From: Nanobdellota archaeon
GTDB lineage: Archaea > Nanobdellota > Nanobdellia > Woesearchaeales > SM23-78
Direction: 5' to 3'
DNA: 56,661 nucleotides
NCBI GenBank assembly: GCA_038046485.1
Contig: JBBSWA010000002.1
Location: 1-56,661 of the forward strand
Part shown: piece by piece, positions 30,137-42,291 of the stretch
Numbering within the stretch: position 1 is the first letter of the stretch
How the letters are laid out: each line of letters starts with the position of its first letter
Notes under the pieces: model-generated
Databases searched by the model: none
What the model was told of the DNA's origin: nothing
What the model saw: the letters and a program-made list of their open reading frames with translations, nothing else
Translations under genes and position numbers: made by a program

Positions 30137-30682
30137 ATGGAAAAACAAATGCCTGAGTTAAAGTTAACTAGACAGAAATCTACAAAGTCCCTCATCACGA
30201 ATGTCGTGACCGAGCTCGTAGGAGAGGAAGCTATGCCCATTGTGCAGTACTTGCAGGGCAAGAAGAACATTTCTGAGTTTATCATTGCAGAAGAATTGGA
30301 CTTGGAGATCCACAAGACCCGTAATACCTTGTATAAGCTTTTGGAGCAGAACATCGTAACCTTCAAGCGCAAAAAGGATAAAATTAAGGGTTGGTATATC
30401 TGTTATTGGGATTTCAATGAACATAACATTTCTCATCTCTCGGAGAAGATCCGTGTGGATAAGATCAAGAAGTTGAGTGAGCGTTTGGAGCGTGAGGTGG
30501 ATAACATGTTTTACATGTGCCGAACCGCCTGTGTGCGGATGGATTTCGAGAAGAGTATGGATTTCAACTTTAAATGCCCGGAATGCGGCGAAATCATGCA
30601 AGAGCAGGATAATCAAAGAACCATTCAGTTCTTGCGCGAACGCATTGGCGAATTAGAAATCAACAAACCAAGCGTAAGATAA
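30137..30682 (+). CDS. tfe: transcription factor E (TFE alpha / TFIIE-alpha homolog)
   Basis: N-terminal winged-helix region plus a C-terminal zinc ribbon (CRTAC...CPECGEIM). The 181-aa size is typical. Confidence 0.8.
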   Translation: MEKQMPELKLTRQKSTKSLITNVVTELVGEEAMPIVQYLQGKKNISEFIIAEELDLEIHKTRNTLYKLLEQNIVTFKRKKDKIKGWYICYWDFNEHNISHLSEKIRVDKIKKLSERLEREVDNMFYMCRTACVRMDFEKSMDFNFKCPECGEIMQEQDNQRTIQFLRERIGELEINKPSVR

Positions 30683-32305: not shown

Positions 32306-33061
32306 ATGCATGCTATTGTTAGGAAACCAGGCCATAATTTTGCGGGAGGAATAACGACCTCAAATTTAGGAACTCAAGATTATAATAAAGCATTAAAACA
32401 GCATGAAGATTACTGTAAGGTTTTGGAAAGCTGTGGGATAAAAGTGTTTGTGTTAGATGCTGATCTTAAATATCCAGATGGGTGCTTTGTTGAAGATACA
32501 GCGATTGTTACAGAACAATATGCGATTATAACAAGACTCGGCCATTCTACTAGGCAAGGAGAGGAAGAGAAGATAGTTGAAATTCTATCTAATTACAGAA
32601 AGATCGTATATATACAATCGCCAGCCACACTAGATGGTGGGGACATTTTGAGGGTCGATAAACATTTTTATATTGGGCTATCAAAAAGAACAAATAGGGA
32701 AGGAGCAAAGCAACTTACAACGATTCTATCTAAAGAAGGTTATACTGCATCAACTGTCCCTGTAAAAACAGTGCTTCATCTAAAAACAGGGGTTACTTCT
32801 ATCGGGATGAACAACCTTCTGTGTATAGAAGAGTTTCAAAAAAGACCTGAGTTCAAATCATTCAACGTTATACCTATTAGTAAAGATGAAGAATATAGTG
32901 CGAATTGTCTCGTCGTTAAAGAATGGCTTCTAATGCCAAAGGGTTTTACTAGAACAAGAAGCAAATTAAAAGGATTAGGTTATAATATTACTGAAATAGA
33001 AATGGGAGAATTTGCAAAGATGGATGGGGGATTGACTTGCCTATCCTTGTTATTCTCATAA
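32306..33061 (+). CDS. dimethylarginine dimethylaminohydrolase / amidinotransferase-family protein
   Basis: 251 aa with GGDILRV, HLKT and the C-terminal GGLTCLS (catalytic Cys), typical of the DDAH/arginine deiminase superfamily. Confidence 0.7.
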   Translation: MHAIVRKPGHNFAGGITTSNLGTQDYNKALKQHEDYCKVLESCGIKVFVLDADLKYPDGCFVEDTAIVTEQYAIITRLGHSTRQGEEEKIVEILSNYRKIVYIQSPATLDGGDILRVDKHFYIGLSKRTNREGAKQLTTILSKEGYTASTVPVKTVLHLKTGVTSIGMNNLLCIEEFQKRPEFKSFNVIPISKDEEYSANCLVVKEWLLMPKGFTRTRSKLKGLGYNITEIEMGEFAKMDGGLTCLSLLFS

Positions 33062-33065
33062 ATCT

Positions 33066-33608
33066 TCACAACTTCCCAATTACTGTCTTCTCACTAATAA
33101 TCGCTGAATTCCCAGAAGGGTCTTCTAGAATAAATTTGCAGTTTTCTTGCCCCCACATGATGCGGGTCATCTTCTTAAGGATGTTCTTTGCCTTCTTGCG
33201 GTCTTCCTCTTCTTCTGCAGTGTCGCGTAAGACTTCGACTTGTTTCTTAATTCTATTTAACACACCTTCAATATTGGTCACATATCCATTCGAAAATTCA
33301 CCGGGTTCAATCGATCCAATGTGGGGAATCTTCACCGTAGCATCCGCACTTTTCACAACACGGATCTTCATGTCTTCTTCTTTAGTAATCTCAAATGTAT
33401 ACTTGCTTGGCGTTCGTTTTTCTTCCGGCTCTACATCTGCTTTGTGGTAGCCGCATCCAGAGCAATCCATCCCGAAAAGGTGGCAGTTGCCAAAGTAAGG
33501 TACTTCGCGCACAGCCTCAGTCAAAGTCAATTTCTTTTCATTGCAGAAGGGGCAGAGTTCATTTTCAATGACTTCAACAGCTTCTTCTGCTTTCTTCTTT
33601 TCAGCCAT
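33066..33608 (-). CDS. ZPR1-type zinc finger protein
   Basis: CPFC...(x)...CSGCGYH four-Cys ZPR1 zinc finger followed by the ZPR1 beta-domain. The 180-aa size fits archaeal ZPR1-related proteins. Confidence 0.75.
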   Translation of the reverse strand: MAEKKKAEEAVEVIENELCPFCNEKKLTLTEAVREVPYFGNCHLFGMDCSGCGYHKADVEPEEKRTPSKYTFEITKEEDMKIRVVKSADATVKIPHIGSIEPGEFSNGYVTNIEGVLNRIKKQVEVLRDTAEEEEDRKKAKNILKKMTRIMWGQENCKFILEDPSGNSAIISEKTVIGKL

Positions 33609-33663
33609 ACTCCCTCAAAAGAAAACATGTTTTAAAAAGCTTATGGTAAGAGTTAGAATTTAA

Positions 33664-34095
33664 TCATTCTTCGCCGAGTTCATCCTTCATGCCAGGGGCT
33701 TGAGGCTGTCCTTTGGCCGCCGCAGGTCCTTGTCGGTAAATCTCAGCAAAGCTAGGTACAATGACCACATAGTCATCGCCAAAGCCGGCAATGTCGCCTT
33801 CAATGGCGTCGGTTGTTTTTTTGAGTTTATTGATGGCTCGTTTGAGTTCAATGAGATCTTTGTCTTTTAAGGGTCGAATATTGATCAAGGCAACAGTATA
33901 TCCCTCTCTTAATACATCTAGAATGGGTTTGACATCGGTGAAGTCTTCTACGACAAAGGGGCGGACAACGACTTTGCTTCCACCCTGACGGGGGTTTTCT
34001 CCTTCTCCGCTAATCTCTACATAATCGTCACTGGGCGCTACGCCTTCTTCTTCATAGTCATTTTTTCTGAATTTTTTGAAGAAAGAAAAGCTCAT
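33664..34095 (-). CDS. sepF: cell division protein SepF
   Basis: C-terminal SepF/DUF552 core VVVRPFVVEDFTDVKPILDVLREGYTVALINIRPL...IAGFGDDYVVIVP. Confidence 0.8.
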   Translation of the reverse strand: MSFSFFKKFRKNDYEEEGVAPSDDYVEISGEGENPRQGGSKVVVRPFVVEDFTDVKPILDVLREGYTVALINIRPLKDKDLIELKRAINKLKKTTDAIEGDIAGFGDDYVVIVPSFAEIYRQGPAAAKGQPQAPGMKDELGEE

Positions 34096-34245
34096 ATAGT
34101 TAGCCTCCAGCCACGGTGCGTTTCACGTCCTTCAAGTATATAAAGCTTTTGGTGGAAAAGTGTTCTTTTTCCGTCTAATGGGCATGAAATCAGGGGTTTG
34201 GAGGCTTGGGGAAAAATTTAAATAGCCGTGCGGGTACCTAAAAAT

Positions 34246-35262
34246 ATGAAGTATGGCTGGATAGTGATAGCACTCTTTCTATTTCATGTAGCGGTAGTGG
34301 CCGCAGAGGATGCAGAGAACATATCCAGTATATTTGTAAAATATGTGACAGCTGAAGAGTTAGGAATAGATGGGCTCTCACCTGAAAAGTTGGTGGTTTC
34401 AAAGCTAGGAGATACGGTTAAGGTGTATTCATTTTCAATTGGCTCAGATGTACAAAAGGCACTAGAGGGGATTAAGGAAGAGGCGTTAAAGCAGCGTCTT
34501 TCTTTGGTGAAAGAGGATGTAGATAAGAAAAAGTGGGTAAGTTTACCGATCTCCCAGCAAGTGGATATTTATCAGATCTCAACGATTTATGCGAATATCG
34601 ATAAGAAGGCGTTTAGGAGTAGGGTTCGCTTAACGGTAACTTCACCAGATAATTATAAAGCAGTTAAGATTGTGCAGGTATATCCGGATGGGGAGGATAT
34701 CAGTGCAGCCGATTTTATATTTAACCCAGACGATAAACCCGTTGTTTTTAAGACAAGAGATCCTATGCTTGAATGGAATATTCCGCTCGTCTCTCCAGGT
34801 CAGGTAATCAAGTTGGAGTACTATGTAAAGGATATTTTGACGAATGCGAACCTGCTCATTTTGGCTTTTGGGGAGTTGTACAGTTCAGCGGAGCCTTTAC
34901 CAGAGGTGAATGAGTCAGCGGTAACACCCAGCCCAGAAAACGATTCAGTCCCCGTTACAAATGTAAGTTCAAATGTCACAGCACTCCCAGTGAATACAGA
35001 GACAAAATTCTCAACCGCGTTTTTGCTTACGGTATTAAGCATCCTTGCCTTGGTTTCGGTTGTGATTGCCATTTTCCATTTTGAGTTGAAGGAAAAGGCC
35101 GTTGCAGAAAAAAGAAAGTTTTCTGAGAACTTAGATAATTATGTGAAGACCAGTTTACAGATGGGGGCAGATCCAAAGACTTTGCGTCAGGCCTTAAGCG
35201 CAGCAGGTTGGGATCCTCAGATGGTGGATCGTTTGATTGAGCATCATACAAAGAAGCATTGA
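34246..35262 (+). CDS. surface-exposed membrane-anchored protein (hypothetical)
   Basis: Track ORF starts at GTG 34228. ATG 34246 lies 21 nt after AAATTTAAATAG. N-terminal signal (WIVIALFLFHVAVVAA), C-terminal TM (FLLTVLSILALVSVVIAIF) and a short cytoplasmic tail. Confidence 0.55.
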   Translation: MKYGWIVIALFLFHVAVVAAEDAENISSIFVKYVTAEELGIDGLSPEKLVVSKLGDTVKVYSFSIGSDVQKALEGIKEEALKQRLSLVKEDVDKKKWVSLPISQQVDIYQISTIYANIDKKAFRSRVRLTVTSPDNYKAVKIVQVYPDGEDISAADFIFNPDDKPVVFKTRDPMLEWNIPLVSPGQVIKLEYYVKDILTNANLLILAFGELYSSAEPLPEVNESAVTPSPENDSVPVTNVSSNVTALPVNTETKFSTAFLLTVLSILALVSVVIAIFHFELKEKAVAEKRKFSENLDNYVKTSLQMGADPKTLRQALSAAGWDPQMVDRLIEHHTKKH

Positions 35263-35340
35263 TAGTGGGTTTAAGCTCATTTTTCTAGGAAGATTTATAA
35301 ACAGATTAACTATCACTAAGTAGTGATTTTAGGAGATAGG

Positions 35341-35868
35341 ATGGCAACACTACAGTTAGTTCATTCGGGGCATGGATTGATATATCCCTATCGAAAGGTC
35401 GTTTTATATGAAAGTAATCCCTCCTCAACTCAGGCAGGAGCAGGTGAGATAAAAGCGATTATAACCCACCAAGGGGTAGAAGAGATATCCCCAACAACAG
35501 TTCCTTTAAAGGAGTCGGTATTGACAGTTGCCTATTGGGGGCAATTAGACCCCGCAGGTTTTGTTGTGCTTCCTTCAGGACAAGGAAGGACTTCATTGGA
35601 AAACAGAGTTTTTTTGATTGGGGAACACGTGGCTAGGCAACCGTTAAATAATCTAAGAATTCCTCCTATGTTTACTCGAGATGATATTAGCGGAATGCTT
35701 AGCACATCTCTTATCGCAAGGGTGGATGTTTATTGGACTCAAGGTGGGGCAGAACAGGTTTTATACGAAACAAGAACGATGGATAGTGACACTAGACGTT
35801 CACGATTAAGATCCCTTGCGCAAGATCCAGAATGCCTTGCAGGAAGTAGTTTAATTAGTGTGCTCTGA
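35341..35868 (+). CDS. hypothetical protein
   Basis: ATG 35341 is preceded by AGGAG. No TM and no recognised motif. Confidence 0.5.
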   Translation: MATLQLVHSGHGLIYPYRKVVLYESNPSSTQAGAGEIKAIITHQGVEEISPTTVPLKESVLTVAYWGQLDPAGFVVLPSGQGRTSLENRVFLIGEHVARQPLNNLRIPPMFTRDDISGMLSTSLIARVDVYWTQGGAEQVLYETRTMDSDTRRSRLRSLAQDPECLAGSSLISVL

Positions 35869-35881
35869 AGTTAGTTCTTCT

Positions 35882-36577
35882 CTAAGCAGTAGAAGCTTGT
35901 AGTTGTGTGAAAGAAGCAATCCGCTCAACAAAGTTTTCCCAGGTAGCAATTAAGTTTTCAGTCATAGCTTTGGTTTCATTTTCTTGAATGGTTTTTATCA
36001 ACTTAATGGCTGCTTTAATCTTGCTGATAGGAGCTGCCATCTTAGGGTCTTGTACATTTAATCGGCTTAAGTCTATGTCTTGAAGAGGGGTAGTATTAGC
36101 TGCTTCCTGGTAGGCCTCAAGATAATCTATAATTAATCTTTGTAATTTTTCCATACAGCTTAAGACAAGTTTCCATATTCTTATCTCAAGAAGAGCATGT
36201 TGAAAGTATCGGTGAACCTGGTTAGCAATCACTTTTTTGACATCAAAGGTGGTGTTGAGTAAGGAACTGGCTTCGCTATCAAAAAAATCTTTTTCTAGTC
36301 GGGCAATGCCTTCTTCAATACTTGTTTTGAGTCCAGGGAGATTTTTTATCCAAGCTCCATATTCATCTTGTGATACTACGCTTAGGAGGAGATCTGCCCA
36401 GGTTCCTCGTTCATGTACCTGATCACTGAAACGGCTTCGGACATCAGATGAGGGTTGGATGAGGTCTATGCCTGCTGCGCCTGAGCGAACACGTGCTTCC
36501 CTGCCAGCTTCTTGAGTTGTCCGTCGATTAGCAAGCTGGAGAATTTTGTCATTTTGTATAGTCCAAGCATTTACCAT
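35882..36577 (-). CDS. hypothetical helical protein
   Basis: 231-aa ORF divergent from the GGDEF gene. No family recognised. Confidence 0.5.
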   Translation of the reverse strand: MVNAWTIQNDKILQLANRRTTQEAGREARVRSGAAGIDLIQPSSDVRSRFSDQVHERGTWADLLLSVVSQDEYGAWIKNLPGLKTSIEEGIARLEKDFFDSEASSLLNTTFDVKKVIANQVHRYFQHALLEIRIWKLVLSCMEKLQRLIIDYLEAYQEAANTTPLQDIDLSRLNVQDPKMAAPISKIKAAIKLIKTIQENETKAMTENLIATWENFVERIASFTQLQASTA

Positions 36578-36706
36578 CCATTTTCCCTTCAGTCTACAAC
36601 CTATTTAAACCCTTCGCTCTGGAGCAGCCCACCTTATATTAATTATAGTCACTTAATAGTAGTTAAGAAGCGAAATGTTTATAAAGGGCAGCGTCTAAAT
36701 CAGAGG

Positions 36707-37909
36707 ATGACTAATCGAGAAAGCCCTCTTGAAAGCTTAGTAACGCACGCCTCGGTGGGTGCTGTTCAAAAACCTCTACGAGAGCTTGCGGCGCAGATCT
36801 TTCGAGGGCTTCATACACAATTTCCAGGCAGGAGCGTTGCTAGAGATGATATTAGATATGCGCTGGTATTGTTGGATCATCCAAATTCTACAAATCTTTA
36901 TGTGGCAGAAGCCGCAGGGTTTCGGGATCGGCATTATGATGATCCATTAAACGTATTAGAAACGCTTGCAGGGCAAGCCATTTTGAATAATACTCCTCAA
37001 TGTTTAGAAACAATTAATGGGCAATCTCCATTTCATCATTTAGCGGGCGAAAGACGGGCAAAAAGTGCTTTAGCCATTCCGTTACGTAACTTGAAGGATA
37101 AAGTGGTAGGAGCCGTAGTGGTGGAAGAAGTGGAGTCTGAAACGGCACAGGATGAACGACCCTTCCCATTTAATTCGGCGGCAATAGACAATATCATGAA
37201 CATTATTCCAGGATATGCAAGTGGTTTAGATTATTTCACCCAAGCTACGATCGATCCAGTAACAGGAGTTTTGAGCCGAAGGCGTTTAGATGAAGTAATG
37301 GCACAAACCTACGAGTCAGCAAAGAGAAGTAAGCGGCCTTATAGTATTATTATGTTGGATGTAGATAAATTTAAAGATTATAATGACACACATGGTCACC
37401 CAGCAGGAGATGAAGTTCTACATTTTATTGGGGATATTATCAAAGAGCATTTCCGCGGGAAAGCTGCTGGGGGAAGATACGGTGGGGAAGAATATGCTAT
37501 TCCAAGAGATATACCTATAGAAAATGCATTAATGGAAGCAGAAACCCTTAGACGAAAAATTGAGTCCGAAAGCAAGAGAGAAAAACTGAATGGAGGTATA
37601 ACCGCTACTTTTGGGGTAGCCTGTGATCCTACACCTTCAGGAACAGATTATTTAGAAGAAGCAAAGCGAGTTTTAGGTGATGCAGATAAAGCAATGTATG
37701 CAGGTAAGGGAAAATGGGTTTTCACCAGGGGACCAAATGGGTTGTGGGGGCCAGAAACTTCTGGACAGAAAAACAGGGTTATGTTTAAGCCGTTACAGGG
37801 CGCACGTATACATCATACAAGGCAGCGGTTTGTTTTAGATAAAGTAGGCGAAGGAGAGTTTAAGCAGATCCCCTCAGAAGCAGAAACCTACGGATTATAT
37901 AAACTCTAA
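36707..37909 (+). CDS. GAF-GGDEF protein (putative diguanylate/dinucleotide cyclase)
   Basis: GAF-like N-terminal half (YVAEAAGF...[22 protein letters not shown]). GGDEF domain with [22 protein letters not shown] and the active-site-type RYGGEEYAI. No RxxD I-site 5 residues upstream. Start ATG 36707 follows ATGTTTATAAAGG. Confidence 0.85.
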
Positions 37910-39429
37910 TTTTTCAATCCAGTATAACTTTTTTTTATATTCATTTCTTGACTTGTTTTCTTCACAAACACATCAAACAACGGAACTTTAATCGGCGTTG
38001 CAAAGCGTGCAAAGTTACTCGTAATAATTGCTTCACCTTTATCCAAAGCCGCAATGCTCCTTCCATCCGTACTCAGATCTTGACTCGCACTATCAATCAC
38101 AGCCTGTCTTTCCGGTGCCATCTCAATGCCAAGAATGATCTTCGTGTTAATATTGGCCAAGATCTCTCGAGGAATCAAAGAAGGTAACTGTGTAATCGCC
38201 GTCAATCCCACTTGAAACTTCCTTCCCTCACGGGCAATCGTTGCAAATACGTTAGGTCCGCTTTCAAGCACTTCTTTTCCAAGGACGCGAGGTGCTTCTT
38301 CAAGAACAATGGAAACAACCGGTTTATCTTTGAGACTGCCTTGATTCTTATAATATTTGTACTTCCCCAAGATTTCCGTAGCAAGGATCGAGCCAATAAG
38401 GATTTCAGTACTGCTACTCAATCCGCTCGTATCAATAACTACCGTATGTGCTTTTTCAAGTTCGTTTAAAGTATCGGCAACCGTTGTCTCTCCACCTTGG
38501 AGTTGGAAGGCTCCATTACAAAATAGTTGGTTATTGTTAAATTCTAAGTCTAGGATTTGGGAAAATCTTCTTCGTACAACAGCAATGCTTCCTTCATTGA
38601 ATGGATTTTTTCCATTGGAATCGGCAAGGGTTTTTCCGATCATGGCAGCTTCAATCCATCCTTCTCCATAGAGGCGGTAATAAGCGGTTAGGGCTTCTTT
38701 TTGGGGCCCACTCCATTCGGCAGAGCCATCAAAATGATGAGGTCTTAAAATTTTCAAGTTAAAGCGTAACGTTCTCCCGCCGGCCGGCGGGCTCCGGCTG
38801 TAATAAGCCAATCTCTCTTTCTTCGGATGATTCTTCAATCGTTCATAGTATTCATCATGTGGATCGAGCACAAGCAAGGCACAGTAGTCCTTGTCGAGAG
38901 TATCCCATAGAACAACGCTCATTAAATTACTTTTTCCCTTCCCAGTCGTAGCCGGGATCAAGACGTGGTGGCTAAAGACTTCTCGCCCGTCTAAGTAAAT
39001 GGGAAAATCAAGCTCTTTAGAGCCCGATCGCAATTGACCGATAAATAAAGGATTTTTAGGCTGGGTCAAAAATGAGAGATCTTCTGCAGTAACGTCGCGC
39101 ACCAAGCTAAAGAACGTAGGGAGTACTTTGCAGCTGCGGGCTTGGTTTTCTTGGATGAAAACAAGTGTTTTGAGCATCGCTAAACTATAGTTGCGCAGTT
39201 CTGGCTCCATAAAATCCAAGGTACCGCCTTGTTCGAGCATCATTCCAGAGACCAGTTCAAGGTTTTCTTCGCTGATTTGGCTGCCATACTGTAAGTCAAA
39301 GGCTTGAAGAAGTACTTTTCCAGAGCTGTTCTCGGCAATAAACAATTCACCTAGCTCTGCTTCTTTTCCTTGCTTCACCCGCATCAGGATCTCGCCAAAC
39401 TTCCCCGTGACAACTTGACCGCGTACCAT
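37906..39429 (-). CDS. HerA-like (DUF87/COG0433) ATPase
   Basis: N-terminal barrel-like region, Walker [12 protein letters not shown], Walker [12 protein letters not shown]-terminal LEEAPRV...[17 protein letters not shown]. Its 3' end overlaps the GGDEF gene by 4 nt (convergent). Confidence 0.8.
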
Positions 39430-39506
39430 GCTGTTCGAGAACCCTCTATCCTATATAAAAATGACGTTTAGGAAAAGCTTTTAAAAGCCAATAGCTTCCT
39501 AGCCTC

Positions 39507-39659
39507 ATGCAAACAATAACCCTTCCCAAGATCAAGTTTGAGCGTATGGAGCTCGAGTTAAAGACCTTACGAGAGACTCGCCTATACAAGCGCTTGTTGG
39601 AATTTAACCAGAACGTGTTGAAAGGCAAAGTATACACAAGGAAAGACTTAGGTTTCTGA
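39507..39659 (+). CDS. small antitoxin-like ORF (50 aa, not in ORF track)
   Basis: MQTITLPKIKFERMELELKTLRETRLYKRLLEFNQNVLKGKVYTRKDLGF. TTTTAAAAG lies ~25 nt upstream. Its 3' end overlaps the convergent RelE-like gene by 12 nt. Confidence 0.5.
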   Translation: MQTITLPKIKFERMELELKTLRETRLYKRLLEFNQNVLKGKVYTRKDLGF

Positions 39660-39965
39660 AGCTTTTGTTTTTATTTTTTGAATGGTTTTTCGTTGTTTAA
39701 GAGCACTAGTTTTCATCTCAAATTCAAAAACCTTAATCTGGTTGCTCTTCTCTAGAACTTGGTAATAGAGTCGAAGTGGTGGTCGTATGTTCTTGACTTC
39801 ATAGAGAAAAAGTTGGGAATCCAGAAGTTCTCCGGCCAAAGGACCTTTTTCTTCGACCTTGTCGAACATCTTCCGAAGAATTTCTTTTACTTCTTTGTTT
39901 TTGCCAGCTTTCTTCAGTTGTTTAAAGACAACTTTATCGAAGATAAGTTCGTAGTTTTTATTCAC
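39648..39965 (-). CDS. RelE/ParE-superfamily toxin-like protein
   Basis: 105 aa, basic. YELIFDKVVFKQLKK...LFLYEVKNIRPPLRLYYQV...IKVFEFEMK shows a RelE-like strand pattern and shares the RLYY motif with 13995..14303. Confidence 0.55.
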   Translation of the reverse strand: MNKNYELIFDKVVFKQLKKAGKNKEVKEILRKMFDKVEEKGPLAGELLDSQLFLYEVKNIRPPLRLYYQVLEKSNQIKVFEFEMKTSALKQRKTIQKIKTKASET

Positions 39966-40002
39966 AGGATGGAGAAGTTTGTTAGGTATTATAAAATTGC
40001 CG

Positions 40003-40575
40003 TTAGAAAAACGCCCGATACAAATTCAAATACACACTAAACCCATCAAAACCTGGGATCGGCAGTAAGTTGAAGATCAGTAAGAACTTGTTAATATGTC
40101 CAAGAAGCAACAGGAAAAATCGGATAGTGTGGGGTATCTTCTTACCGCTGTTTAAGGCAATCTTAGATCCGCCCCAAAGGAGCAGGTGCCAGATAGGTCC
40201 AGCAAGGGCGATAAAGGCCATCTGTAAATGGGTTCCCCCGTTGCCGATAGAAACATAACCTGGAATAAAGAAGATCAAGCCGGTATTCAATAACTTCAAG
40301 ACAATGCCAAACAACAGCCAAGTATAGGCAGCATGAAACGTCGCACTCAAGCCATAGGCCATCGCAACAAACTTATGTCCCATTTCGTGCAGAATCACAG
40401 AAGGTGCTGTGACAGCACAGGCAAACCAGAAGTCTTGCCAGCGAAATCCCTGAAATTGTTGAAAGTACTTCTCAGTAATGCGTCGGGGGTGTTGAGGAAA
40501 GGCATCCATAAAGATGTAGCCCAGAGCAAGGGACATGATCAGCACGTCGATGAGTTCGCTAAAGGTAAACAACAT
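40003..40575 (-). CDS. M50-like (site-2 protease family) membrane metalloprotease
   Basis: HEMGHKF (HExxH) in a TM helix, plus NLLPIPGFDG (the LDG motif of M50 peptidases). Confidence 0.65.
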   Translation of the reverse strand: MLFTFSELIDVLIMSLALGYIFMDAFPQHPRRITEKYFQQFQGFRWQDFWFACAVTAPSVILHEMGHKFVAMAYGLSATFHAAYTWLLFGIVLKLLNTGLIFFIPGYVSIGNGGTHLQMAFIALAGPIWHLLLWGGSKIALNSGKKIPHTIRFFLLLLGHINKFLLIFNLLPIPGFDGFSVYLNLYRAFF

Positions 40576-40707
40576 AGTATGCCAGAAACCGATTTGTTTT
40601 TTAAAGTTTATTAAAATATAACTGATTAGAGACGAAATTCAATAAGGTGTTGGAGATATACAACCTAGCACAACAATGTATATAAAGTTCTTCCTTCAGT
40701 GCGAGGT

Positions 40708-42291
40708 ATGCACAAGACTAAGTTTATTGTAACCACAGGTGGGGTTGTATCGGGTTTAGGCAAGGGTGTGACAACTGCGAGTATAGGTTCTTTGTTTGCC
40801 TCTGAATACAACGTAGTCCCGATTAAGTGTGATGGTTATCTCAATGTAGATCCAGGAACCATGAGTCCATTTCAGCATGGCGAAGTCTTCGTACTCGATG
40901 ATAAGGGTGAGGTCGATATGGACTTTGGCCATTACGAGCGTTTCTTAGATATTGATTGTCAAGGCGAATGGAATTTAACTCTAGGGAAGATATTTGAAAG
41001 AGTCATCAATAAAGAACGTCGAGGAGACTATCTGGGGGGGACAGTTCAACTCATACCTCACGTAACAAATTTTATTAAATCTTGGTGGAAGCAAATTTAC
41101 GATCGATCGAAGGCTGATCTAGTTTTGATAGAAATTGGTGGCACAGTTGGAGATATGGAAAATAATCTGTATATTGAAGCGGCAAGACAATTAAAAAAAG
41201 AAGTGGGTCTTGAAAACATTGTTTATGTTCATTTAACCTATGTGCCAATTCTCGAAAATGTAGGTGAGCCCAAGAGCAAACCGACGCAGCAGAGCGTGCA
41301 GTTATTAAGAGAGCGTGGCATTGTCCCAGATATCATTATTGCTAGAAGTTCCGCTCCATTGCCTCGTGGTTTGGAAGAAAAGATAGCATTGTTTTGTGAT
41401 GTGGATCAAGAGGCAGTCATCAGTGGCTTGGACTTAGACAGCATTTACAAAGTTCCAAGAAGTTATGCAGATCAAGGGCTTCTTAAGATTCTTAGTGAAC
41501 GATTAGGATTGCCTGTTCAGACTCCTCGCTTTTTTGATATAAAAAAGCCTGACGAAGCCATTAACTTAGCTATCTGTGGAAAATACACTAATTTACGAGA
41601 TGCATACGCAAGCATTTCACACGCCCTTGAACATTGTGAGCACGCATTGGGAGTGAAGTCGGATGTTAAATGGTTAGAAACCAGCGAGGATAATGATTTA
41701 GAAGAATCACTCGCAGGAGTAAATGCAGTAATCGTGCCAGGTGGTTTTGGTAGCCGAGGGACAGAGGGCAAGATAAGAGTCATTGAGTATTGCCGTGAGA
41801 ACAACATTCCATTTTTAGGTATCTGTTATGGTATGCAGCTTGCAGTCATCGAATATGCCAGGCACATTCTTGGATTAGCAGATGCAAACAGTGCAGAAAT
41901 CAACCCAGATACTTCTGAACCGGTTGTGTGCCTACTCCCTGAACAATTCAAGGTACATGCATTAGGAGGCACCATGCGGCTGGGAGGTCATGATGTTCAT
42001 ATCAGACCGAATACGGAGACAAGAGCCCTAGTTGGGGAAGATGTTATCCGCAGAAGATTCAGGCATCGCTGGGAAGTGAATCCGGAATATGTGCCTAGAT
42101 TGGAAGGAAAGGGGCTGGTCTTTTCAGCGTACACACCAGATAGAGAGATTATGCAGGCCATTGAGCTTCCAGGGCATCCTTATTTTGTAGGGACTCAATT
42201 CCATCCAGAGTTAACTTCCCGCCCGAGAAGGCCCGATCCTCATTTTTTAGGGCTCATCAAGGCTGCGGTTAAGCATAAAAATAATTCTTGA
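40708..42291 (+). CDS. pyrG: CTP synthase
   Basis: N-terminal KFIVTTGGVVSGLGKG, C-terminal GATase GICYGMQ and the FHPE-type motif. Track start GTG 40699; ATG 40708 preferred. Confidence 0.95.
   Translation: MHKTKFIVTTGGVVSGLGKGVTTASIGSLFASEYNVVPIKCDGYLNVDPGTMSPFQHGEVFVLDDKGEVDMDFGHYERFLDIDCQGEWNLTLGKIFERVINKERRGDYLGGTVQLIPHVTNFIKSWWKQIYDRSKADLVLIEIGGTVGDMENNLYIEAARQLKKEVGLENIVYVHLTYVPILENVGEPKSKPTQQSVQLLRERGIVPDIIIARSSAPLPRGLEEKIALFCDVDQEAVISGLDLDSIYKVPRSYADQGLLKILSERLGLPVQTPRFFDIKKPDEAINLAICGKYTNLRDAYASISHALEHCEHALGVKSDVKWLETSEDNDLEESLAGVNAVIVPGGFGSRGTEGKIRVIEYCRENNIPFLGICYGMQLAVIEYARHILGLADANSAEINPDTSEPVVCLLPEQFKVHALGGTMRLGGHDVHIRPNTETRALVGEDVIRRRFRHRWEVNPEYVPRLEGKGLVFSAYTPDREIMQAIELPGHPYFVGTQFHPELTSRPRRPDPHFLGLIKAAVKHKNNS

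Follow-up and report, generated by a model that had tools for sequence, protein, structure and literature searches.

A GAF-GGDEF gene in a groundwater woesearchaeal archaeon probably encodes a native sensor diguanylate cyclase

Diguanylate cyclase activity has been reported for GGDEF proteins from archaeal isolate and metagenome-assembled genomes (MAGs), mainly of DPANN archaea, in Salmonella and E. coli assays that covered GAF-linked, REC-linked and stand-alone GGDEF types (Sidorov et al. 2026, Mol Microbiol, PMC13725321). That study called the archaeal occurrence of GGDEF occasional and not multi-copy, and left open the frequency of such proteins and the phosphodiesterases and receptors of cyclic diguanosine monophosphate (c-di-GMP). 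At the time of Galperin et al. 2018 (PMC5847659) one archaeal GGDEF protein was known and MAG-borne ones were suspected contaminants. Here we describe a window of 56,661 nucleotides (nt), the whole stretch of DNA analysed (contig JBBSWA010000002.1, GenBank assembly GCA_038046485.1, a Nanobdellota archaeon of the order Woesearchaeales), and within it a gene whose product, P0001, we consider likely to be a cytoplasmic sensor diguanylate cyclase native to its groundwater woesearchaeal (DPANN) host. The protein type is already known from the 2026 study (PMC13725321); what is new is a verified locus, a census of the lineage, a candidate EAL-like partner and a contrast between promoter and coding sequence. 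Like the archaeal proteins of Sidorov et al., P0001 is DPANN-borne, combines a probable GAF-type sensor with an intact GG(D/E)E motif, lacks the Hypr serine and is flanked by archaeal genes. It differs from that set in not being among the tested proteins, in lacking the Asp of the inhibitory site (I-site) and in carrying a family-specific hairpin and a C-terminal tail. The gene and its parts are as follows.

36707..37909, plus strand: predicted GAF-GGDEF sensor diguanylate cyclase gene (400 amino acids, P0001), from Pfam, NCBIfam, AlphaFold2 (AF2) and Foldseek
36764..37156, plus strand: N-terminal GAF-like sensor domain (about residues 20-150), from the homologue P0003, alignment A4 and model matches to 4zmu and 5llw
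37175..37249, plus strand: long linker helix (residues 157-181) from sensor to cyclase, from DSSP on the AF2 model
37250..37789, plus strand: GGDEF catalytic domain (residues 182-361), from alignments A1 and A4 and sequence alignments to GcbC, 3IGN and WspR of the PDB
37712..37771, plus strand: family-specific beta-hairpin insertion (residues 336-355, KGKW..W..), from alignment A4 and AF2 strands
37790..37906, plus strand: C-terminal tail (residues 362-400) with two predicted strands, from the AF2 model and alignment A4

The open frame at 36707-37909 comprises 400 codons, and its start at ATG 36707 is backed both by a 64%-identical orthologue that is alignable from residue 1 and by a TATA box, TTTATAAA (36678-36685), 21 nt upstream. 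The original prediction, made from the sequence alone, had described an intact GGDEF domain with a GGEEY active site, and profile searches bear this out. Pfam GGDEF (PF00990) matches residues 180-334 with E=2.3e-28 and 99.4 bits against a cut-off of 23.8, and NCBIfam TIGR00254 gives 115.3 bits against 37.4. The active-site hairpin reads RYGGEEY, with R257 followed by GGEEY at 259-263 (nt 37481-37495), and all catalytic residues are present. D218, D220, K223, R257 and K334, which we take to be the equivalents of the metal- and phosphate-binding D327, K332, R366 and K442 of PleD, are invariant, or nearly so, in an alignment of 53 homologues (A1) and invariant in an alignment of the four-member family (A4). 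The same is true of the guanine-specifying N226 and D235, presumably the counterparts of PleD N335 and D344. Across the four-member family G259, G260 and E262 are invariant, whereas the third residue of the motif can be E or D; in A4 the catalytic residues are unchanged even in the congener whose cyclase is only 26-28% identical. The inhibitory RxxD site, which belongs five residues upstream of GGDEF, is absent, as had been predicted: the position reads R250-G-K-A253, where at least 90% of the 53 aligned homologues keep the R and D. The Asp is also gone in two relatives, P0002 (RGKA) and P0003 (FPDR).

The catalytic domain aligns to the solved active cyclases GcbC (5euh), 3ign and WspR with E values from 1e-19 to 2e-11. 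In the AF2 model it adopts the GGDEF fold with a predicted local distance difference test score (pLDDT) of 90-98, and Foldseek superposes it on isolated GGDEF domains with template modelling (TM) scores of 0.8-0.88. WspR, PleD and GcbC (3bre, 3i5b, 1w25, 5euh) resemble this domain in sequence and fold and share its DxD..K..ND..GD and RxGGEE residues. They are product-inhibited through RxxD, however, where P0001 has RGKA, and their sensors are REC or other domains, whereas that of P0001 is GAF-like. The GAF-GGDEF architecture proposed for P0001 is that of Dcsbis of Pseudomonas aeruginosa (PA2771, 4zmu), which aligns over 343-366 columns (Foldseek E=8e-15); the two proteins are about 19-20% identical, the host of Dcsbis is bacterial, and the hairpin and tail are extra in P0001.

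The AF2 model of the whole protein (overall pLDDT 81, predicted TM score 0.72) consists of an alpha/beta sensor at about residues 20-150, the helix 157-181, the GGDEF domain and a small beta extension, with lower pLDDT (45-90) in the sensor region. Foldseek matches this model to Dcsbis (4zmu) and to a phytochrome-linked cyclase (5llw) over 340-410 columns, and matches its catalytic half to WspR, GcbC, DgcB and PleD. The proposal that a GAF-like sensor precedes the GGDEF domain is supported by the model and by P0003, a 38%-identical homologue that passes the GAF_2 cut-off (35.5 bits against 28.6); alignment A4 covers the GAF-like region of P0001, where the domain itself stays below Pfam significance. 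By analogy with WspR, DgcB or DgcR, helix 157-181 may act as a dimeric stalk. The residues that had been described as a C-terminal extension of about 60 amino acids do exist, but part of them (336-355) form an inserted hairpin, and the true tail is about 40 residues long (362-400). The hairpin is common to all four family members and precedes the canonical last GGDEF strand (KNRV, 355-358), with strands predicted at 338-341 and 347-349 (pLDDT about 90). All four members likewise have the tail, with strands predicted at 373-376 and 393-398 (pLDDT 85-91); it is well conserved only between P0001 and P0002, and L377 is its sole invariant residue.

The archaeal residence of the gene is supported by several lines of evidence. 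The source genome, from a groundwater woesearchaeote (Woesearchaeota, DPANN), measures 1.53 Mb and is 89.9% complete and 0.34% contaminated. The same contig carries TFE (30137-30682), archaeal-type SecF/SecD, SepF and ZPR1, on both sides of the locus. A protein identical to P0001 is encoded on 9 contigs that agree in gene order, and contigs of 22.4 and 26.3 kb from separate single groundwater runs span 33000-41000 with at most one mismatch and no joints; the single-run assemblies that hold the locus come from three samples. Base composition at the locus is native (GC 0.428 against 0.426 for the genome), the tetranucleotide use of the island is unremarkable (18th percentile among windows of the genome), and contigs C2 and C73, the latter carrying genes discussed below, correlate with the genome at r=0.99 and r=0.98, respectively. 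The cyclase gene sits beside HerA, M50, CTP synthase and GAPDH genes in the same position in three congeners. The check for a chimeric or misassigned contig thus came out in favour of an archaeal one.

GGDEF domains are also widespread in the lineage. Their description as very rare in archaeal genomes does not agree with our census, in which GGDEF scored above the Pfam cut-off in 31 of the 41 nearest relatives (16/18 in the own family), in 127 of 251 genomes of the order (a set that includes closed genomes; 105 of 191 genera were positive) and in 89 of 201 high-quality genomes of the phylum, at least 17 of them from other orders. Genomes of the order hold up to six matches and often two to six copies, so that where Sidorov et al. 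speak of occasional occurrence we find GGDEF in about half of the order's genomes, frequently in multiple copies. The fifth residue of the motif often varies in the lineage (GGEEL, GGEEI, GGDEI, GGDEY). Short stand-alone types of the kind described by Sidorov et al. occur as well: seven genomes of a sister genus (g2, L114-L125) encode a stand-alone GGDEF protein of 190-230 amino acids in the constant gene order AlaX-like / GGDEF / HisRS, which indicates vertical inheritance. Two genes away from this stand-alone GGDEF gene, the sister genus conserves a gene for a secreted SLT_2 lytic transglycosylase (L115:6093-7055, plus strand, with counterparts in L114, L118, L122 and L123; Pfam E=9e-46). 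A murein-cleaving type of enzyme in an archaeon may hint at bacterial partners or prey.

Acquisition from bacteria had also been proposed. The native composition, the position kept in three congeners and the phylogeny give this idea no support. A GGDEF-domain tree built from 40 archaeal sequences, 80 from named bacterial genomes and 29 metagenomic ones (149 in all) resolved only the clade of P0001, P0002 and P0003 (96% support); this clade had no bacterial sister, and the archaeal sequences were scattered, with at least three forced origins. The tree resolved no bacterial donor of the cyclase gene; the best full-domain matches beyond the small family are bacterial, at 30-38% identity.

Upstream, the cyclase gene shares a control region with a divergent gene, orf231. 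This region and the genes around it are listed here.

36578..36706, no strand: divergent control region between orf231 and the cyclase gene, from sequence and congener comparison
35882..36577, minus strand: orf231, an orphan divergent from the cyclase gene, no family match
35341..35868, plus strand: orf175, an orphan, no family match
37906..39429, minus strand: HerA-like (DUF87) ATPase gene, convergent and judged to lie outside the unit (DUF87 80 bits)

We assign the TATA box TTTATAAA at 36678-36685 to the cyclase gene and a second one, TATTTAAA at 36602-36609, to orf231. Since the cyclase TATA box lies only 21 nt before the ATG, a leaderless or near-leaderless cyclase mRNA is predicted, and the orf231 mRNA also looks leaderless. 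Between the two divergent TATA boxes (within 36600-36711) lies a 22-nt box, CCTTATATTAATTATAGTCACT (36632-36653), which hardly varies among three species even though the genes on either side of it are hyper-divergent. We regard this box as a candidate operator to which a regulator may bind. The control region of about 110 nt is 81% identical between the genome studied here (G000) and one congener (G002), the highest value in the locus, and its last 75 nt or so are almost invariant in all three congeners. The element is single-copy in the genome. As an RNA element the conserved intergenic region found no Rfam match, no covariation and a weak fold, and an Rfam scan of the whole window gave zero matches. 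Sigma-70-like sites are fewer than expected by chance. In the other congener (G001) a DDE/rve-type transposase fragment (L083:1-285) ends 142 nt upstream of the cyclase gene, at the contig end, and this insertion sequence (IS) fragment stands in place of the orf231 side of the control region.

Behind this conserved promoter the proteins diverge quickly. The comparison covers the three genomes G000, G001 and G002; because synonymous divergence (dS) is saturated (2.3-3.5), only ratios of nonsynonymous divergence (dN) are usable and we make no dN/dS claim from the values that follow.

G001 against G000: cyclase identity 64-66%, dN 0.26; HerA dN 0.10
G002 against G000: cyclase identity 26-28%, dN 0.84; HerA, M50 and GAPDH dN 0.07-0.13

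Between G002 and G000 the HerA, M50, orf184 and GAPDH proteins are 82-91% identical, and at the DNA level there is no detectable similarity over orf175, orf231 and the cyclase coding sequence. We read this pattern as suggesting that regulation and chemistry are conserved while the sensor and partner surfaces diversify.

A search of the full genome for partners of the cyclase, which had been advised, recovered a second GGDEF gene and an EAL-like candidate; HD-GYP and PilZ genes were not found. The window itself contains no EAL, HD-GYP or PilZ gene, as originally stated. The two additional genes are:

C73:25220-26305 (= L147:5221-6306), plus strand: second GGDEF gene, REC-GGDEF, with RWGGEEF and an intact RVND I-site
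C73:29750-30532 (= L147:9751-10536), plus strand: EAL-like gene, divergent, stand-alone, 261 amino acids, from Pfam EAL, Foldseek and synteny

The receiver of the REC-GGDEF protein reads DLVLLSLNL at the expected phospho-acceptor site; the acceptor Asp appears to be replaced by Ser, and the domain is perhaps a pseudo-receiver. The REC-GGDEF gene was not detected in the two congeners. On C73 the EAL-like gene lies 3.4 kb downstream of it and was found through synteny with an EAL match in G002, beside ABCE1, a neighbour that is 86% identical between the genomes. The EAL-like protein is 39-40% identical to this G002 orthologue, the only one detected, which itself scores 48 bits with Pfam EAL. Both keep YELL(L/V)R, Asn, ExxE, DD, Lys, AEG and Gln, and all 50 of the best 50 Foldseek matches of the model are EAL domains. 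As in PA3825-EAL (4y9o) and YahA/PdeL (4kie), the protein is a single domain of about 260 residues in which ExL..R, N, ExxE, DD, K and E(G) are present. We therefore regard it as a candidate, putative c-di-GMP phosphodiesterase, the activity left open in PMC13725321, in the same genome as the cyclase.

Partner domains were also counted across the 41 relatives by six-frame Pfam search, which found EAL above the cut-off in 2 genomes, PilZ in 1 and HD-GYP (HD_5) in 13. None of the 13 HD-GYP positives belongs to the own family, where PilZ was also absent (0/18). Outside the own family HD-GYP tends to accompany GGDEF: 11 of the 15 genomes with GGDEF have it, compared with 2 of the 8 without (Fisher p=0.04). 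In the own genome the same search returned zero EAL, HD-GYP or PilZ above the cut-off; because it missed the divergent EAL-like gene, all of these EAL, HD-GYP and PilZ figures are lower bounds. A search of the 41 genomes for the c-di-GMP-I riboswitch (RF01051) gave no match, but the controls gave none either.

We envision a scenario in which the GAF domain of P0001 senses a small ligand and helix 157-181 relays its ligand state to the GGDEF domain, probably within a dimer, so that two GTP-loaded GGDEF domains would condense two GTP into c-di-GMP, the product that P0001 most likely makes. With the inhibitory RxxD lost, we propose that classical product feedback does not operate. The EAL-like protein encoded on C73, divergent and stand-alone, would account for turnover of the messenger. 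The gene would be transcribed near-leaderless from its own archaeal TATA box, and the control region of about 110 bp would serve both the cyclase gene and the divergent orf231. Synthesis of c-di-GMP, coupling of the GAF domain to the cyclase and EAL-mediated degradation are the parts of this scenario that we infer.

Several observations weigh against a native sensor diguanylate cyclase with an EAL-type partner. According to a 2023 review, c-di-GMP has not been found in any archaeon (PMC10249747), and none of the RNA-seq runs searched for the cyclase gene holds it. The fifth motif residue of P0001 is Tyr263 and not Phe (GGEEY, not GGEEF). Hmmscan gave no GAF match (PF13185/PF01590) in P0001 at E<=0.01, with only a faint precomputed match to GAF_2. 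The very fast divergence of the cyclase is compatible with relaxed constraint. The EAL-like protein is unlike PA3825-EAL and YahA/PdeL not only in its archaeal host: its Pfam EAL match, which runs end to end (E=9e-7), reaches 28.9 bits, below the gathering score of 31.3, the loop-6 DFG(T/A)GYSS motif cannot be made out in it, and AF2 models it poorly (pLDDT 62). Finally, hidden Markov models built from the HD-GYP and PilZ genes of relatives found zero matches in the own genome (90% complete).

Some of these observations fit a different reading, in which P0001 lacks catalysis and serves as a GGDEF scaffold or adaptor through protein-protein contacts, perhaps with the co-regulated orf231, without producing a nucleotide messenger. 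In its favour, the motif ends in Tyr (GGEEY, not GGEEF) and a congener has GGDEL, divergence is extreme (dN 0.84 against 0.07-0.13 for the neighbours), the genome yielded no canonical receptor, and Sidorov et al. (PMC13725321) describe catalysis-independent phenotypes of archaeal GGDEF proteins. However, the metal-, phosphate- and guanine-binding residues are all invariant through this divergence, and such invariance is a signature of selection on catalysis. Fifth-position variants (Y, L, I) are common among the GGDEF genes of the lineage, and the I-site that degenerate GGDEF receptors use is broken in P0001. We consider a silent scaffold unlikely.

The speed of divergence bears on two further proposals that place the cyclase at an interface with a host or a virus. 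The first accepts a c-di-GMP system and takes its genes, the cyclase with its orphan partner and the EAL-like gene, to be a rapidly diversifying sensing module at a symbiont-host or virus interface and not a housekeeping switch. In such a module the sensor and partner surfaces would change at about 6-12 times the rate of the neighbours while promoter, operator and catalytic residues stay fixed, and, because PilZ and HD-GYP were not detected, the receptor would be of a new kind; we offer both parts of this proposal as speculation with a small chance of being right. The second, which we judge improbable, groups orf175, orf231 and the GAF-GGDEF gene into a conflict or host-interface module whose cyclase would produce an alarm signal for virus defence or symbiont-host recognition. 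In its favour, G002 keeps the layout while the sequences diverge beyond recognition and the shared promoter stays 81% identical; the EAL-like gene diverges likewise (39% against 86% for the adjacent ABCE1); and in G001 an IS lies directly upstream, with a restriction-modification and IS insertion next door. Against it, PADLOC matched neither the cyclase nor the orphans, effector-like domains are lacking, the saturated dS leaves no way to demonstrate positive selection, the comparison extends to three genomes only, and the orphans may not be real partners.

A native cyclase that makes something other than c-di-GMP is very improbable. The original prediction had raised a Hypr-type synthase of cyclic GMP-AMP (cGAMP), and one might extend this to a promiscuous GGDEF enzyme making cGAMP, cyclic di-AMP or linear products; GGDEF enzymes of altered specificity do exist, as the citation of Hallberg et al. 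2016 in PMC10249747 has it. A Hypr identity fails because the specificity residue, in the xxGD motif where Hypr enzymes have Ser or Thr, is Asp (D235), and D235 (GD-EVL) and N226 are invariant in the family; the Ser of Hypr enzymes is found in 0 of the 20 archaeal GGDEF proteins of Sidorov et al. (PMC13725321). Bacterial contamination, a chimeric join in the metagenome bin or a very recent transfer, for which one might cite the bacterial matches beyond the small family and the worry of Galperin et al. 2018 (PMC5847659) about MAG-borne GGDEF genes, is effectively refuted, because the nine contigs and the separate single-run assemblies from three samples agree, archaeal markers flank the locus on both sides, the composition is native and the promoter archaeal, and three species share the gene as a syntenic orthologue.

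The layout around the cyclase gene is as first described, with orf231 divergent, orf175 close by and the HerA-like ATPase gene converging. Neither orphan has a family match in Pfam or NCBIfam, a match to a PADLOC defence model or a clear sequence relative. For orf231 we found zero homologues among 5.8 billion proteins and one weak match of 48 amino acids among 1.84e9 representatives. In G002 the slot between orf344 and HerA holds an open reading frame (ORF) of 131 amino acids on the plus strand, one of 257 amino acids on the minus strand and a 431-amino-acid GAF-GGDEF gene (GGDEL). The orphans are thus conserved with the cyclase in position, size, order and orientation in this one congener, but not recognisably in sequence: orf231 and its 257-amino-acid positional counterpart have only a 29-amino-acid patch in common (E=0.005, marginal), and the similarity of orf175 to the 131-amino-acid ORF is not significant.

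The HerA-like gene, which the original prediction drew into a possible module, overlaps the end of the cyclase gene by 4 nt in convergent orientation. Its product is 83-87% identical in the two congeners and 60-65% identical across more than 100 proteins of Woesearchaeota and Nanoarchaeota, with its closest named relatives in Candidatus Woesearchaeota, Nanoarchaeota and Nanoarchaeia, and the gene has no GGDEF neighbour in the sister genus. We therefore reject this core lineage gene as a functional partner. A known anti-phage system, HerA-based ones included, was likewise rejected, given that HerA is a core gene and PADLOC found nothing on the cyclase or orphans, and so was a mobile element, as no flanking repeats were found at the locus.

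Beyond the HerA-like gene, the interval up to the M50 peptidase gene (39430-40002) varies in content. In the window a RelE-like ORF of 105 amino acids occupies it; in G001 the same interval (L083:3145-7840) carries an MvaI/BcnI-type restriction enzyme, an N4/N6 methyltransferase, a MazE-like gene and an IS (DDE_Tnp_IS240). The CTP synthase encoded at 40699-42291 on the plus strand is 62% identical to the copies of both congeners (530 against 547 amino acids), whereas the adjacent genes are 82-91% identical, a contrast that suggests replacement or accelerated change in one lineage.

Until 2026 c-di-GMP signalling was treated as bacterial, and the locus described here is a clean, assembly-verified, native archaeal example of a GGDEF gene. 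The census places GGDEF in about half of the genomes at the level of the Woesearchaeales and of the phylum, often in several copies, and with the EAL-like gene this small genome also supplies a first candidate for an EAL partner. At about 1.5 Mb, and with a single EAL-like gene beside two predicted cyclase genes and no known receptor, the genome would be a compact system in which to look for an archaeal receptor of c-di-GMP.

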